A stretch of 64,000 nt of DNA from Escherichia coli. Lineage in GTDB: Bacteria; Pseudomonadota; Gammaproteobacteria; Enterobacterales; Enterobacteriaceae. The stretch lies in NCBI RefSeq assembly GCF_003790525.1, contig NZ_CP033635.1, one strand, 5' to 3'. Shown here piece by piece: positions 9,001 through 18,000 of the stretch (the stretch's first letter is position 1; each line of letters begins with the position of its first letter). A program made the position numbers.

Positions 9001-12000
9001 TTTAAATGATTAATCTGTGTTGGATAAATGAGTAACCCCCATAAGAACCCCCAAATAACTTAGTGTAAGGGAATGAAGCTAAAATACACAATCGAATCAA
9101 TTCTTAGAGCTTTATTATGAAGGTAACACTCCCGGATAGTGTTTCGCAATAATATCATTCAGCCTGTCAACCAGTTCTGGTTTCCTGAACCTGATGTGCG
9201 CGGAGCCTTTCTTAAAGTATCTGATGCTGAACATCTCATCTTCATAGCATTCTTTACCCTGAACAGACCGGATGTGATCATCCAGACGAATAGTGATGTT
9301 TTCCCGGTTGTCGGGGATCGGTTTGCCGCTGAACAGATGTAGCATTCTTTCCAGGTCGACGAGTCGGTCAGTCTGTTGCCCGGTGATAAGATGAAACCCC
9401 CACCGGTCCCACCTCACCAGGTTGTTGACGATAATTTTACTGCCAAATTTGCAGGGGCAATTGGTTTTGTAATTCCAGCTCAGTCCCCTGAAGACGTTGA
9501 TCACCCCTCGCTCAAACACCTCATCCTTATTCTGGTGTAGTTGTTCAAATGTGATCAGAATGTTCGCTTCACTGATTTCCGGAAAATTATCGTACTCCAG
9601 TGACCGGTACCATGTATCACGGGCCTGTGCATCCATTAAGGAAAGCATCCCTGAACGTTGCATCAGGTCACGCCAGATTTCGCGGTCAAGATTCCGGGTA
9701 ATGGCTTTCATTGCTGTTTCTGGTTTCTCCATCAGCCAGCAACCACAGCGAAAATTCTGTTTCATCGCCCAGTCCGGGGCGGCTTTACCGCCAATACTTT
9801 CCGTCAGTGCTGAGATTTCTGTCAGTTGCCGGATAAGCGTGTCGATTTGCAGCAGTGTACTCTTTCGTACAGCCAGGATGTGTCTGATACTTGTGGAACA
9901 GATAACGGCTGTATGTCCGTTGACCGCGTTCGGGGGGGGATTGTGATATATGACATTATGGGGTTTCCTTTCGGTTTATAAACGAAAACGCCAGCTCTGT
10001 TCAGGCTGGCGTCAGGAGAATGAAGTCTGGTGAGTGAGATTCACCGGTTCTGGTGCAGAAGTTGCAGTTGGTGCAGGGTACGGATATCCTCCCTGGCCTG
10101 TTCAATACAGGGCAGCAGTGCTGCCGAATCCGTTTTATCCTCATCGTTGTCGAAAATAATTCCGGACCCGCAGTCGATATTGTCCTGCAGCCACGCAATG
10201 AGGATATCCAGCGCTGTTTCAGTGGTTAATGGCATCACGCTCTGTATCACTGTATTGTCTTCCGGCAACTGATGAGAGCTGGCAGAAGTCGCCGGTGTTT
10301 CGGTAGCGTCACGTTCATCCACCACGCGGAGTGAATAACCGTATTCAGCGACCTTGTTAATCAGTTCAGTGAGCTCAACACCATCAATGTCAACGACAAT
10401 TCGCCCTATATTCAGTGCCTGTACGTTAACGCTGTCTGCTTCCAATGTCAGGGCCAGTTTCATCATTTCGCCTCCGGATACTTACCCAGGGTAATGTTAT
10501 TTACCGTTCTGTAATTGTCGCGGGTCATCAGGCCGGTCGCCCTGCGAGCCCGGAGGATATCGATGCTGTTTATTAACTGAGAGCGGGTACAGGCGCTGAA
10601 TCCCGGCTGGTCGGTACGTACCAGCGCGTATTTTTCCACGAGAAAGTTCACCGCATCACACAGTGAAATGCCCGCTTCAATATGCTGCTCAATCACACGT
10701 TCATCCGCGAACGGTGTGTCATTCAGCGCGAGGCCGTAGTGCTGGTCCAGTAACCGGGTGAGCAGTGTCTGCCAGATGGTGACGGGAGACGGGCAGCACG
10801 ATGCCTCCCGTACATGCGTGTCGGGTAATGTTTTCATAATGAAGATTTTCCTGATATGCAGAGATAAAAAATGGGACAGTGGCGTGGTGAAAACACCAGG
10901 CCGGAGCAGAAGATTATTCTGATGATTTACTTTTTCGTTTCGGGCGTCGGATAAACAGCCAGATAAACGTAACCACAGGAGCCGAGGGTGTCGGCTTCAC
11001 AGGTCAGCCCCTTCGCATACAGTGTCACGGTATGCTGATGGCGGGGATTCAGTTCACCGCTGGTGAGCATGAGCTCCAGTTGTTTCATCAGCAGCGGAAA
11101 GGCCTGGTCCGGATGGTACGCATCCGCATCTCTGAACCGGCCTCTGATACCGGCACGGTCGGCAAGGTAATGCAACCGGTTACCCTCCTGCACCAGACGT
11201 GCCCCGAAACAGGGCGTCACGGTGCAGGGCAGTCCCCACCAGAGGCGGTCGTGATTGTCGTCGTGATGCGTTGTCCCGGGGAGTGTGTCTGACACGATAA
11301 AATCCTCACAGAAAATCGTTGAATGATAGTTTAACTTTGACAGGTCAGCCGGTGCGCAGACCGGCTTCGGTGAAGGTGTATTCGTTGATGAGAAGGGCCT
11401 CATCCACAGGGGCATCTGAGGTCAGCCTGTTGTGCTCGTTTTCCAGTTGACGGTACAGCCAGAAGGCCAGGTCGCGCAGGGCTTCGCTGACAGCGGCTTC
11501 CGCATCTGTTGTCATAGTCTGACCAGTCGGACTGTTCCGGGTGACGGTGATATCCATGCTGTACGGATGGCAGTAGCGTCCCCGGCGGTGGATTTCAGCC
11601 TGCAGTTGCCAGAAGTTACGCTTCTGCACCGCCTGCAGGGCATCCGCGATACGATGGAGTTCATGCTCCTGTGGGGCATACTTCCGGATTATCCGGGCTG
11701 TCGCCGGCTGCCAGTGCCAGCGTCCTTCAAAACAGGCTCCGTCCCCCTGGCTGCAGCATCCGCTGAACCAGATGCACGGCTCTTCCATAAACCTGCCGTT
11801 GCTGAGCCGGAAAACGCGCTGGCGGAGGTCAATTCCGAAAATGTCACAGACCGCCCTGAAGTCCTCATACACGTTTTCATACCAGTTGCTGTCAGCATGA
11901 TGCTGACGGTACCCGTCGCGGGCTTTTTCCCGTGCCGGGCAGGAAAGTTCATCCAGCGTATACACTGTGATGGTGATAATTCTGCTCATCAGAATGCCCT

Positions 12001-15000: not shown

Positions 15001-18000
15001 GAGCCTGACGGGTGCAGCCGTTCAGCGGATGCGTGGCGCAGACACGGGACTGAAAAATGGCATTGCACAGGCTGCTTTTTCCGGCACCGGATTTACCCAT
15101 AATGCCAATAACGGGTTCGTACTGAATGACGCTGCGAAGATGTTCAAGGATTTTCTGGCGAATTTCTTCAGGAAGAAAGGTCAGATGTGACTTTACGTGT
15201 GCGGAGAGGGAAGAATGGCTGAATGACATACCGTTATCCTGTTGATTTCACTGAACCGGATCACATTAATCCGGCCTCTCAGTCAGGTAATATGGACGTG
15301 AAAATTTTTCCATTGACGGGAAGAAGAGTATGGCTAAAAACAAAGGTATCTGTCGGAATAAAAAATGCAGCAATCCTGTTTCAGAATTTGATGAGGCAAA
15401 TGCCCTGAGGTTATGTGATGATCATTATCAGTTATGGAAACGAAATAAAGAGAACCGTCGGGTCAGGAATATTTGTCGTATAATCAGTAAATATGACAAA
15501 AGTCTGGACCGGGAGATATTTGACAGAGTAATAGATGCTGCAAGAAATCAAACGGGAAAGAGAATTGTTGAGGACGCAAAAATATTACATCAATTGCGCA
15601 ATTCAAAGCAAGTAAGAAAAAGTCTTCATAATGGAGTACTCCGGTCACGGGAATGGCTCAATACACAGGAGTTACTGAGAAGAAAAAATATATCTGTTAC
15701 AGGTGACTCATTTAAATCTTACATAAAGGATATTGTCAGATTATATTGCTATAAGTTTCTCTACAGCAGAGAATATCTTAATGAAAACGCATACAAAAAA
15801 CAATATCAGAGAGTTATTAACCCCAGAGAATTTAATGTTCCGATACTTCAACTTGAAGTTGCATGGATCAATAATAATTGCCGTTCAAGTGATTCAAGCT
15901 CTGATATTATCATCCTTCCCAGGATGATAAGAAGAATGGTTGTATTTAATGATACGAAGATAAATAAACAATTAGAGGAAATGTTGGGGGGGATAGCACG
16001 AAAAAAAGTCGCAGTAAGGAATAAAGGCGGTCTCTATACCAGAATAAAAAAAGAAAATGATTTTCGTTCTATGGATAGATTTATGGTGGAAATCGAAAAT
16101 ATCATAAGGCCTGAAATATTTCCGACATCAATTTACCCGCCTTTTTCACTTTCATTTATCGAGAGAGAATTGCCACTACTGAATCTGGCGCACTCACAGT
16201 ACAAAAGAGCAATAAGTAAAAAAGTGGCGAATTCAATTTTTTATACTTTGCGAAAAACTCACGTGGCATTATGGCTGCATCTTGAAATGTTTGCTCTTGT
16301 GGCATTCATCAAACTGTATACAGGAAAAGGGTTTGAATTCATGAAAAACATGTGTGTATTTATAGATTATGATAAAGGGATAATAAAATCCACGCATGAA
16401 GAACTGCTGAGTGAAATTAAGTGTAACATTCAGTTGAATTTAAAGGTGAATCCTGATAATTTTCCTGAATTAATAGAAGTATACAATTCATGCTTTAGTA
16501 AAAATATATTGTTGTATGATGTTCAGGATGATGGTTTTAAATGGTGTTTATGATGTGAAAATATTAAATTTATATTACATTTTAATTATCGACAAAAAAC
16601 ACATAAAGAAATCTAAAGGGAATGAGCGTCAAATGAGCTGATATAGCGCCAGTTTGGTATGGTCATGTGATTTGATGATTAAAGCTTACGAATAATAACA
16701 CTCCTCTGTGAGCCATATAAATGAGCATGCCATAATCGTCAGTTCAGAGATAAAACTGACTGAATGATCTTATGTTATAGTAAGCAGTGTTTACCGGATA
16801 CGATGACTTATCTCTCTCACATCATATGGATTCACTTTCATGGGGTAAAGCGATGGGACTACAGACGCTGATTATGATGGTTTGCTGTAAAGTTAGCACA
16901 AGTTTTTGCTGTACAGAATACGGAGTAAGAAAAATAATTCCAGAGTAAATCTGCTCTGCTTTTGAACAGAAAAGATTCATGCTTACCGTGAAAAACTGAA
17001 ACCAACATTCAGTCTGCATGGATGTCTTAAGATGTTGAGAATGTCGGATATGGTATTATATACACCTTTTCCATTAGGTCCTTTTATGTTTTCATTAAGT
17101 CGTTTTGTATGTATTCCTCCAGTGATTCATTAGTGCCTGTTTACGCATTTACACACTTTCCCATTAATCTCCTTTAAATGTGTTTCATTACGCATTGCTG
17201 TACACATTTTTGAACTGATACACATCCAAGTTAGTAAACCTGTCAGTTCTGATTTTACGTTAACTAAATCAGTTTAATGCTGCTGTAAAACAATCCTTCC
17301 TGTTTAAGCAATCAATCTGCTATTCGATTTTACTGATGTGACGTTTAACCTTTCCTGAGCTTTGGTTGTTTGTGGTTTTTGGTTTGTGTTTCGACGTTAA
17401 GCTGAGAAAAGTATCTTTACGCTAAATCAACCCGAACTTTCCTGAGGTGATCTGACGTTCTTTTCGATGTGCTTACGACGATTCTGTTAAACGACTTTCT
17501 GGATGTTTTGATAACAATCAGATTGAGGCATTAACGATTCCTGACGTTTTGCTTTTTCATGTAAGGTCATTGTTTTCGTCATGATGTGGTTTTTCTTCTT
17601 GCATTGCGAAAGTGTGATGATTGGTTTTGGTTTTTTGATTCAGATGAGATTTACGTTATCGATGGTTAATCGTTTTTATGGTGCGTAGTGAAACGTAACA
17701 TTTTCGGGATGAGAAAATCGATTCTGATGGTGATGGGGATGATCGTGTTACGGCGTTATCTGTAAACAGGTTTTAAACGTGTCATTCGCATTCGTGATTG
17801 AGTTGTGTGATTAAGCTGTAGGTTTTGGCGTTGTTGTTGATTTGCATTGCCAGGAAGCGTTCTGGTTGCGTTTCTGGTGTTTTGTTCGAATGTTCTGTGG
17901 ATCCTTTTCCCTTCAGGCTTTTCTCGTCGTCCATGTCGTTTTTAAATCCATTCATGCTGTTGTTGCGTGTTTTGCTGCTGTGTGCAGGATTATCTTTTCG

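Follow-up and report, generated by a model that had tools for sequence, protein, structure and literature searches.

DUF8835 and DUF4942 genes are regular members of a common Escherichia coli island tail that carries the CbtA/CbeA toxin-antitoxin pair

Introduction

Do two genes that seem foreign to a CP4-type accessory block really depart from it, or do they belong to its regular equipment? The question is raised by a block of ten minus-strand ORFs in a 64,000-nucleotide stretch of Escherichia coli DNA (contig NZ_CP033635.1, assembly GCF_003790525.1), hereafter the window. A sequence-only reading had described a block of the CP4-44 and CP4-57 type with a CbtA/CbeA toxin-antitoxin pair, and had singled out two unknown genes, encoding proteins of 214 and 216 amino acids, as departures from it. 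In K-12, CbtA binds FtsZ and MreB directly, blocking cell division and elongation (PMC5624674). CbeA counteracts this toxicity, and the operons of such type IV systems are not autoregulated (PMC5371832). Here we analyse the block by profile searches, alignments, RNA folding and comparison with complete E. coli genomes.

Results

The block is a common island tail beside setC

All ten ORFs are present where the sequence-only reading had placed them, and nine of the ten gave a strong Pfam match (Table 1). On the minus strand, the first part of the block runs GTPase, terminator, DUF932, antirestriction, RadC-like JAB, DUF987, DUF8835 and CbeA (from a GTG start), and the second part CbtA, a DUF5983::DUF957 fusion, terminator, DUF4942 and a 16-nt repeat of the tRNA-Sec gene selC. 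The GTPase ORF translates with a P-loop (GKSGAGKS) and a DLPG motif, and the RadC-like ORF with the metalloprotease motif HNHPSGx7D; a strong predicted hairpin separates the GTPase and DUF932 genes. These matches, together with the gene order in the K-12 annotation tables, agree with the assignment to the CP4-44/CP4-57/CP4-6 type. We infer the transcription units from gene spacing and predicted hairpins; a consensus promoter scan gave sites no more numerous than expected by chance.

Table 1. Features of the island tail in the window
Feature	Positions	Strand	Evidence
Repeat, 16-nt exact copy of the selC 3' end (TTCGACTCCTGTGATC)	8964..8979	-	
DUF4942 (PF13708) gene, last of the island, ~280 codons	9115..9956	-	Pfam E 1.7e-68
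Terminator-like hairpin, then UUUUCGUUU (T run)	9987..10013	-	RNA fold
DUF5983 N-terminal part (YeeW-like) fused in frame to DUF957, 141 aa	10041..10466	-	DUF5983_N E 2.5e-27
CbtA-family toxin, 124 aa	10463..10837	-	PF06755 E 3e-63, full profile
CbeA (YeeU)-family antitoxin, 122 aa, GTG start	10927..11295	-	PF06154 E 6e-53
DUF8835-family gene, 214 aa	11345..11989	-	RefSeq name of 98%-identical protein
DUF987 gene (YeeT/YkfH/YpjJ family), 73 aa	12004..12225	-	PF06174 E 4e-39
RadC-like JAB-domain gene (YeeS/YkfG/YfjY=LfgB family), 158 aa	12288..12764	-	PF04002 E 5e-45
Antirestriction-family gene (YfjX/YafX family), 159 aa	12780..13259	-	PF03230 E 2.4e-37
DUF932 gene (YfjQ/YafZ family), 272 aa	13341..14159	-	PF06067 E 6e-52
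Terminator-like hairpin, strong (12-bp stem, 7 GC pairs, T run after)	14208..14237	-	predicted
YeeP/YfjP/YkfA-type GTPase gene, 294 aa	14345..15229	-	Pfam MMR_HSR1 E 2e-14

Used as a 6.4-kb query, the block matched 14583 places in 5028 of the 5426 complete E. coli genomes (median per genome, 3), and the arrangement is covered to at least 80% in 1645 of them. Its identity to the island on the selC side of strain TUM9803 is 99.5%, and the window is collinear with TUM9803 across 4798-41525. The block is thus an ordinary and very common island tail module, CbtA/CbeA pair included, and its standing as a standard block rests on thousands of near-identical annotated copies.

Very probably, the segment 8964-15229 forms the conserved distal end of an E. 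coli genomic island of the CP4 type, with selC as its insertion site and setC as its neighbour. The selC repeat, which occurs once as an exact match in the window and in none of 100 shuffles, is the distal island boundary: past it, comparison with K-12 selC and its downstream sequence identifies K-12-like backbone (yicT/rhuM remnant, setC, yicL). The block has a G+C content of 0.52-0.57, against 0.34-0.48 for the neighbouring kilobases. Neither the integrase gene nor selC lies within the window, so the island type is taken from the block, the repeat and the related strains.

The toxin-antitoxin pair and the genes that follow it

CbtA and CbeA of the window are 90% (over 124 aa) and 91% (full length) identical to their K-12 counterparts; the toxin retains F65 and carries a Cys at position 15. 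The proposed GTG start of the antitoxin held: the codon (11295-11293) is preceded by a GAGGA Shine-Dalgarno sequence, K-12 cbeA has the homologous start in the same context, and the RefSeq annotation of TUM9803 uses the same GTG. Starting at the first ATG (11415), the protein would be 162 aa long and its ORF would share 71 nt with the 214-aa gene.

The start of the 141-aa fusion ORF and the cbtA stop share 4 nt. The DUF5983_N match covers residues 5-58 of the fusion ORF, and the fusion is apparent on alignment with K-12 YeeW and with O157:H7, where DUF5983 (163 aa) and DUF957 (65 aa) are separate proteins; RefSeq annotates the region in TUM9803 as DUF957 and a DUF5983 pseudogene. The terminator that the sequence-only reading had postulated was recovered downstream of the DUF957 stop codon, ahead of the DUF4942 gene, as the hairpin 10013-9987 with its T run (-22.7 kcal/mol, z -3.48; 0 of 200 shuffles fold as well). 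Its sequence is largely kept in the O157:H7 and BL21 alleles; a simple consensus terminator scan did not list it.

The 216-aa ORF (9115-9765) exists, but it is only the 3' 78% of the DUF4942 gene, read from an internal ATG at 9765. The Pfam match spans the whole 190-position profile. Aligned as DNA and as protein with the O157:H7, BL21 and Klebsiella alleles, the gene shows its usual ATG (9956-9954) out of frame through a 1-nt deletion in a run of 8 C (9939-9932), and in TUM9803 RefSeq begins the gene at an ATA (9951). This copy is therefore probably impaired by the frameshift, which falls at codon 7-8. Matching DNA is found in 3873 of the 5426 complete genomes (71%), and DUF4942 usually closes the series that begins with CbtA-DUF5983-DUF957, as it does in the O157:H7 island beside a tRNA-Ser gene, the BL21 selC/setC island, an E. 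coli plasmid and Klebsiella. In the Shigella SRL island the gene is listed as orf56, a homologue of an ORF called L0010 (PMC6980539).

The 214-aa protein belongs to an old family of mobile elements

The 214-aa protein had no match in the Pfam, NCBIfam and PADLOC copies searched; RefSeq calls a protein 98% identical to it "DUF8835 domain-containing", and it matches PHROG family phrog_5162 (E 8e-33). Gene DNA was found in 2045 of the 5426 complete genomes (38%). DUF8835 counts 2461 homologues and, at the level of 50%-identity clusters, 2967 representatives; the family is large, standard and old, and is carried by mobile elements. The protein does contain 7 Cys and 6 Trp, as its earlier description "Cys/Trp-rich" said, but most of these positions vary across the family. 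An AlphaFold2 model gives a confident predicted fold (pLDDT 95.7), for which no solved relative was found.

Alphaproteobacterial plasmids and ICE-like contigs include family members 55-59% identical to the window protein, about as similar to it as those from Salmonella and Klebsiella (57-60%). On plasmids DUF8835 is mostly alphaproteobacterial, whereas CbtA is confined to Enterobacterales. The family is also present in 45 phages, lytic ones among them, including copies within the terminal repeats of large Caulobacter phages.

Alignment shows that K-12 CP4-44 lacks DUF8835 through a deletion of ~647 nt that spared the gene start. The left flank of this scar, through the ATG and first codons, matches at 27 of 29 positions and the right flank at 40 of 44, leaving the first ~19 nt of the gene. 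Since CP4-44 keeps this start, K-12 lost DUF8835.

Hence the two supposed departures belong to the regular equipment of the block, and each has a family assignment, DUF8835 and DUF4942 respectively; the label "unknown" fits them as regards function. They look extra only against K-12, whose CP4-44 has the DUF8835 scar and a tail ending in a yeeW stub.

Discussion

Judging from gene neighbourhoods, the block would be a set for the establishment and maintenance of a mobile element. Plasmid leading regions are enriched in anti-restriction, methyltransferase, SSB and toxin-antitoxin genes and in many uncharacterised families (PMC11541004). By analogy with such genes, protection of incoming DNA would fall to the antirestriction protein and probably to further members as well. 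The CbtA/CbeA pair may stabilise the island or counter competing elements. The CbtA mechanism and its neutralisation by CbeA would carry over from the K-12 homologues to this copy. DUF8835 we read tentatively as an independent establishment or counter-defence protein acting outside the toxin-antitoxin mechanism, which seems quite possible without being probable. PADLOC, which catalogues defence and not anti-defence, has no model that matches either the 214-aa or the 216-aa protein.

Alternatively, DUF8835 could belong to the CbtA/CbeA system of some islands as its third component, whether a co-antitoxin, a chaperone, a regulator or a trigger acting on toxin or antitoxin. Its gene directly adjoins cbeA in E. 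coli and, in Klebsiella michiganensis, is placed between cbeA and cbtA; several E. coli assemblies have natural in-frame DUF8835::CbeA fusions (342-343 aa), and an older NCBI name of the protein is antitoxin. Moreover, type IV operons are not autoregulated, and the route of toxin activation in them is not known (PMC5371832). The family nevertheless extends far beyond the pair: its alphaproteobacterial members lie outside the Enterobacterales to which plasmid CbtA is restricted, no CbtA or CbeA gene was present in the alphaproteobacterial neighbourhoods examined, and lytic phages carry it as well. Profile comparison with CbeA revealed no similarity (hhalign probability 0.2%), no CbeA/YeeU-like structure was among the fold matches, and the K-12 pairs function without DUF8835 as two-component systems (PMC5371832). 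A third-component role is accordingly unlikely.

That the block is what remains of a true prophage, its genes serving lysogeny or being morons, we regard as quite improbable. The homologous K-12 elements are annotated as cryptic prophages, the 214-aa and 216-aa proteins both match PHROG families, DUF8835 has the phage members described above, and genes of the Inovirus-Gp2 family and for an AlpA-type HTH protein lie nearby in the matching TUM9803 island. Against this, the matching part of that island has no annotated virion, packaging or lysis gene, and among distant matches the gene order comes closest to that of conjugative plasmids and ICE-like contigs (DUF932, RadC, ArdC, SSB, ParB). Finally, the view that the 214-aa and 216-aa genes are unusual extras without a family can hardly be upheld: both are absent from the three K-12 blocks and the Pfam, NCBIfam and PADLOC copies are silent on the 214-aa protein, but each has its family and its DNA in a large share of genomes, the arrangement recurs as counted above, and CP4-44 itself holds the deletion remnant.

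Comparison with known systems

The window block, an ordinary island tail, is a compact and fairly complete copy of a module that K-12 has in three degraded forms (CP4-6, CP4-44 and CP4-57), and comparison with these three confirmed the block order. CP4-44 (yeeP-flu-yeeR-yeeS-yeeT-cbeA-cbtA-yeeW) shares the order RadC-like (yeeS), DUF987 (yeeT), cbeA, cbtA, yeeW at a DNA identity of 90-96%. It differs in that its GTPase gene is a truncated pseudogene, flu and yeeR stand where the window has DUF932 and antirestriction, DUF8835 is missing but for the remnant, and a 64-aa yeeW stub closes the block, DUF957 and DUF4942 genes being absent. CP4-6 (ykfA-yafZ-...-yafX-ykfG-ykfH-yafW-ykfI) and CP4-57 (yfjP-yfjQ-...-lfgA-lfgB-ypjJ-yfjZ-ypjF) have the series from GTPase through DUF932, antirestriction, RadC-like and DUF987 to antitoxin and toxin on one strand at an island end. 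Unlike the window, both have additional genes between DUF932 and antirestriction and lack DUF8835, DUF5983, DUF957 and DUF4942, and the toxin-antitoxin pairs of both are paralogues at a greater distance, YkfI and YpjF sharing 58% and 62% identity, respectively, with K-12 CbtA (PMC5624674).

The tail CbtA-DUF5983-DUF957-DUF4942, followed by the island end, is shared with the O157:H7 tRNA-Ser island, the BL21 selC/setC island and Shigella SRL orf46-56, the O157:H7 copy lacking DUF8835. E. coli plasmid pB39_V has DUF987-DUF8835-CbeA-CbtA-DUF5983-DUF957-DUF4942 exactly as in the window. In full-length tails elsewhere DUF5983 (163 aa) and DUF957 (65 aa) are separate and DUF4942 is intact (~280 aa from its ATG), whereas in the window the first two form one fusion ORF and the DUF4942 start is frameshifted.

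More distantly, the alphaproteobacterial plasmids Thioclava p5, Sphingobium pCHQ1 and Komagataeibacter pGX5 and ICE-like contigs encode DUF8835 proteins at 47-57% identity, co-directional, as in the window, with DUF932, RadC, antirestriction (ArdC or PF03230), SSB and ParB genes. The Thioclava plasmid, with the order DUF932-RadC-DUF6878-DUF8835-AbiE, also has a toxin-antitoxin pair adjoining DUF8835, although of the AbiE type and not CbtA/CbeA. ArdC, SSB, ParB and strawberry-notch methylase-helicase genes lie near DUF8835 on the conjugative plasmids pCHQ1 and pGX5, and Antirestrict, AAA_34 and Toprim_3 genes on the ICE-like contigs. These clusters differ from the window in replicons and hosts, in having DUF6878 or DUF6915 genes in the DUF987 position, and in the large strawberry-notch methylase-helicase and toprim protein that come after; in their make-up they resemble plasmid leading regions.

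Organization of the distal block and of the island end

The minus-strand genes of the block run unbroken from 15229 down to 9115 (ORF listing over 7000-20000), with a G+C of 0.52-0.57 as against 0.34-0.48 in the adjoining kilobases. The co-directional GTPase, DUF932, antirestriction, RadC-like, DUF987, CbeA-type, CbtA-type and DUF5983/YeeW genes follow the order of the CP4-type distal block, as judged from Pfam, from the K-12 annotation and from the table of the Shigella SRL island, whose orf46-56 constitute a block of the same kind (PMC6980539). A 6.4-kb block query was located at 14583 places, distributed over 5028 of the 5426 complete E. 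coli genomes (median, three places per genome), and in 1645 genomes a single place covered at least 80% of it, the 214-aa and 216-aa genes included. The query is 99.5% identical to E. coli TUM9803, a strain with a near-identical selC-side island. The block is an arrangement already known and very common in E. coli. The sequence-only reading holds for the block, for the toxin-antitoxin pair and for the GTG as antitoxin start, and fails where it takes those two genes as departures from the block: both are standard members with assigned families, the outcome that it had itself named as counting against it.

Features of the block and its borders (window coordinates)
Feature	Coordinates	Strand	Evidence
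407-aa ORF	15330-16553	+	G+C 0.34-0.40
GTPase, MMR_HSR1	14345-15229	-	Pfam E 2e-14
Hairpin between GTPase and DUF932 genes	14237-14208		terminator-like
DUF932	13341-14159	-	Pfam E 6e-52
Antirestriction	12780-13259	-	Pfam E 2.4e-37
RadC-like JAB	12288-12764	-	Pfam E 5e-45; HNHPSG...D motif intact
DUF987	12004-12225	-	Pfam E 4e-39
214-aa ORF (DUF8835)	11345-11989	-	no match in the Pfam copy searched
CbeA antitoxin, ATG ORF	10927-11415	-	Pfam E 6e-53; domain = residues 59-157 of 162 aa
CbtA toxin	10463-10837	-	Pfam E 3e-63
DUF5983_N	10041-10466	-	Pfam E 2.5e-27
Hairpin then T run	10013-9987		-22.7 kcal/mol, z -3.5
DUF4942	9115-9765	-	Pfam E 1.7e-68
Copy of selC 3' end	8964-8979	-	16 nt, exact

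Tight spacing and overlaps suggest that the genes from DUF932 to DUF957 form one transcription unit, from which two predicted hairpins would set the GTPase and DUF4942 genes apart. The hairpin 3' of the YeeW-like ORF, followed by a T run, agrees with the terminator previously placed between that ORF and the 216-aa gene, and the one between the GTPase and DUF932 genes is the stronger of the two. Sites found in a promoter consensus scan were no more frequent than in shuffles and no promoter is claimed; an Rfam gathering scan of the entire window gave no match.

As in CP4-type islands inserted at a tRNA gene, the tRNA 3' end recurs as a direct repeat at the island boundary, where only 16 nt of it are repeated. 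Beyond the repeat lies backbone and not island, organized as in K-12 downstream of selC: a yicT/rhuM remnant (about 8717-8878) and then setC. Therefore, DUF4942 is the outermost island gene, with about 135 nt separating it from the repeat. ARAGORN detected no tRNA in the 64-kb window; selC lies outside it, as would the P4-type tyrosine integrase expected beside the tRNA gene at the opposite island end, and the island continues past the stretch examined.

The 407-aa ORF, in an AT-rich stretch, adjoins the GTPase gene and diverges from it; neither PHROG nor PADLOC gave a match, and TUM9803 lists it as a 'hypothetical protein'. PTS/transketolase and other metabolic genes are also part of the island cargo. 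IS-sized ORFs are located at 27355-28563, 33655-34860, 41111-42016 and 57625-58833, and a 1.28-kb element, matching an IS1414-annotated stretch of TUM9803, is present twice (27360-28636 and 57630-58905). From the IS-sized ORFs, and from BLAST blocks that are rearranged with respect to TUM9803, the island is seen to be a mosaic reshuffled by insertion sequences.

The CbtA/CbeA toxin-antitoxin pair

A full-length PF06755 toxin gene is directly preceded, on the same strand and 89 nt apart, by a PF06154 antitoxin gene. Window CbtA and CbeA are 90% and 91% identical to the K-12 proteins and equal to them in length, so that the Pfam matches and these identities uphold the assignment as a CbtA/CbeA pair, a type IV system in which the antitoxin would neutralise the toxin without binding to it directly. 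The GTG proposed as the antitoxin start is also well founded: located at 11295 and preceded by a GAGGA Shine-Dalgarno sequence, it yields a 122-aa protein matching K-12 CbeA end to end, and both K-12 cbeA, in the same context, and the RefSeq annotation of TUM9803 start at the homologous GTG. An ATG-only gene caller would run the antitoxin into the upstream gene, which makes this start an annotation trap.

K-12 CbtA binds FtsZ, involving F65, and MreB directly and separably, and in this way inhibits both division and elongation (PMC5624674). The window protein retains F at position 65, the FtsZ determinant, whereas position 15, an Arg in K-12 CbtA, is Cys. The R15C change abolishes MreB binding of K-12 CbtA, yet YpjF and YkfI, which naturally carry C15, still block elongation (PMC5624674). 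Regarding the K-12 homologues, the antitoxins neutralise the toxins, three upstream genes are apparently in the same operon, and neither toxin nor antitoxin autoregulates that operon (PMC5371832).

DUF8835, a family of mobile elements

The 214-aa protein had been considered a non-standard addition to the block. That view was not sustained, since it is assigned to DUF8835, a Pfam family named in RefSeq annotation, and DNA of its gene is present in 2045 of the 5426 complete E. coli genomes. The family name rests on RefSeq naming: the 98%-identical TUM9803 protein WP_073313425.1, and other copies too, are called 'DUF8835 domain-containing'. The protein matches phrog_5162 (E 8e-33), while NCBIfam and PADLOC gave no match for either it or the 216-aa protein, and a literature search for 'DUF8835' found no paper. 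Homology to the family extends over the full length; a word-indexed search retrieved 2461 homologues, and an exhaustive one at E <= 1e-3 gave 2967 representatives of 50%-identity clusters, which with few exceptions are 200-220 aa long and aligned over their whole length. In an alignment of 87 sequences the motif SGF.SQGDGA.F.G, H141 and W177 are conserved; the window protein has the motif, but F78 is replaced by Cys. The description of the protein as Cys/Trp-rich is correct as to composition (7 Cys and 6 Trp), although these positions are mostly not conserved in the family; the lack of conservation at the Cys residues also rules out a Cys-based metal site.

The AlphaFold2 model of the protein is confident (pLDDT 95.7, pTM 0.88). 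A PDB fold search with it gave no significant match, PDB sequence searches, started from the protein alone or from the 87-sequence profile, returned chance matches only (E 0.7 or worse), and the only matches of a BFVD fold search were uncharacterised phage proteins. Neither sequence-profile nor fold similarity to CbeA/YeeU/YfjZ was found, and a diverged CbeA paralogue is ruled out (hhalign probability 0.2%). The older NCBI name 'antitoxin' for the 214-aa protein finds no support; in the literature the phrase denotes RelB-type proteins.

Gene neighbourhoods of DUF8835
Element	Order or content
E. coli (window, TUM9803, pB39_V)	DUF987, DUF8835, CbeA, CbtA
Klebsiella michiganensis (L009/L010 6368-8944)	DUF987, CbeA, DUF8835, CbtA, DUF4942
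Some E. coli assemblies	DUF8835::CbeA in-frame fusion, 342-343 aa
Thioclava plasmid p5	DUF932, RadC, DUF6878, DUF8835, AbiEi/AbiEii, ..., methylase-helicase, toprim
Sphingobium conjugative plasmid pCHQ1	ArdC-like zincin, DUF2958, ParB, ..., DUF8835, ..., strawberry notch, toprim
Komagataeibacter conjugative plasmid pGX5	helicase, ParB, ..., DUF8835, ArdC, ..., SSB
ICE-like contigs	DUF8835 with Antirestrict, DUF6878/DUF6915, AAA_34, Toprim_3
Phages, n=45	DUF8835, including copies in terminal repeats of large Caulobacter phages

Outside the Enterobacteriaceae the family keeps other company. DUF8835 was located on 108 plasmids, the majority of them alphaproteobacterial; plasmid-borne CbtA is confined to Enterobacterales (66 records). 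Identity to the window protein is about equal for non-enteric members (55-59%) and for those of Salmonella and Klebsiella (57-60%). We concluded from these comparisons that DUF8835 is an old member of the mobile-element DUF932/RadC/antirestriction set, and that the association with CbtA/CbeA is a local enterobacterial one with no obligate partnership.

In the K. michiganensis locus DUF8835 is placed between antitoxin and toxin; DUF5983 and DUF957 are lacking there, and the locus continues with an AbiEi/AbiEii pair and an integrase. The DUF8835::CbeA fusions (homologue proteins P0003, P0006-P0008, P0011-P0017 and others) share the junction ...GLRAG-LPEDFIV-SDKL..., and one is encoded on a 4.66-Mb contig. 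The Caulobacter phages CcrBL9, CcrSC, C2 and J4 (phage records H116-H120, ~300 kb) carry their homologues inside the annotated terminal repeats, which accounts for two copies per genome.

Proposed role of the block

Taking into account that: (i) the block encodes an antirestriction protein, a JAB-type protease with HNHPSG...D, a toxin-antitoxin pair and several uncharacterised genes; (ii) leading regions of conjugative elements have a similar composition, with antirestriction, toxin-antitoxin and unknown genes (PMC11541004), and (iii) the genes around the distant DUF8835 homologues are of the kinds usual in such leading regions, we propose that the block would be a gene set for establishing and maintaining the island. 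Within it, DUF8835 might tentatively be regarded as an independent establishment or counter-defence protein, by analogy with those neighbourhoods. That it modulates the toxin-antitoxin pair instead, as its adjacency to cbeA and the fusions could indicate, is improbable given the distribution of the family relative to CbtA. A broader proposal, doubtful as a whole, would have DUF8835 as a counter-defence/establishment protein with a fold lacking a solved relative, common to conjugative plasmids, ICE-like elements, tRNA-inserted islands and lytic phages, coupled to CbeA in Enterobacteriaceae and in some strains fused with it, and deleted in K-12. The wider interest lies in DUF8835, a large mobile-element family with a confident predicted fold and no solved relative, invariably located among entry/establishment genes.

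DUF4942 and the DUF5983::DUF957 fusion

The 216-aa ORF, likewise thought to be an addition, is DUF4942 (PF13708; 230.5 bits, the gathering cut-off being 25, with profile positions 1-189 of 190 covered), the usual last gene of such islands; its DNA was matched at 7380 places in 3873 of the 5426 complete E. coli genomes. It is the final gene after CbtA-DUF5983-DUF957 in the O157:H7 island adjoining a tRNA-Ser gene, in the BL21 island, which occupies the same selC/setC site, and on the E. coli plasmid pB39_V, and is likewise last in Klebsiella. In the Shigella SRL island table DUF4942 is orf56, a homologue of the ORF named L0010 (PMC6980539).

The window has no intact ~280-aa DUF4942 ORF from the conserved ATG (MS.ITIS.PEVV...). 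That ATG (9956-9954) is out of frame because of a 1-nt deletion in a C run, which at 9939-9932 has 8 C, one nucleotide fewer than in the O157:H7 and BL21 alleles. Conservation of the 60-odd N-terminal residues upstream of ATG 9765 extends to Klebsiella, which shows that the 216-aa call is truncated. The start options left are ATA 9951, adopted by RefSeq in TUM9803 and sidestepping a pseudogene call, and the internal ATG 9765. The loss of a start through a 1-nt homopolymer deletion is a second annotation trap. Furthermore, the 141-aa YeeW-like ORF (10041-10466) consists of the first ~70 DUF5983 residues joined in frame to a complete DUF957; in O157:H7 and BL21, by contrast, DUF5983 (163 aa) and DUF957 (65 aa) are separate genes.

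Comparison with the K-12 elements

The likeness to the K-12 cryptic prophages in gene order is confirmed by the annotation tables of all three elements. CP4-6 runs ykfA, yafZ, ..., yafX, ykfG, ykfH, yafW, ykfI; CP4-57 runs yfjP, yfjQ, ..., lfgA, lfgB, ypjJ, yfjZ, ypjF, and CP4-44 runs yeeP', flu, yeeR, yeeS, yeeT, cbeA, cbtA, yeeW. The spacer between yeeT and cbeA in CP4-44 reads ...TGAgtgggaattctgATGAGCAGAATTATCgcca..., which corresponds to the DUF8835 gene from its ATG through the first codons. In an affine-gap global alignment of this spacer (13055-13112 of the CP4-44 locus L003) with window 11324-11989, K-12 retains the ATG and first ~19 nt of the gene. Matches amount to 27/29 in the left flank, which reaches window 11971, and to 40/44 in the right flank, which begins at window 11323, with ~647 nt absent in between, in agreement with the BLAST blocks. 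Therefore, K-12 keeps the start of the DUF8835 gene and has lost its body, and the laboratory strain that served to characterise CbtA/CbeA is without DUF8835. The CP4-44 tail, in turn, ends at a 64-aa yeeW stub with neither a DUF957 nor a DUF4942 gene. The block is odd-looking only against K-12: its form in the window is the common one across E. coli, and this form looked unusual because the K-12 copies are the degraded ones.
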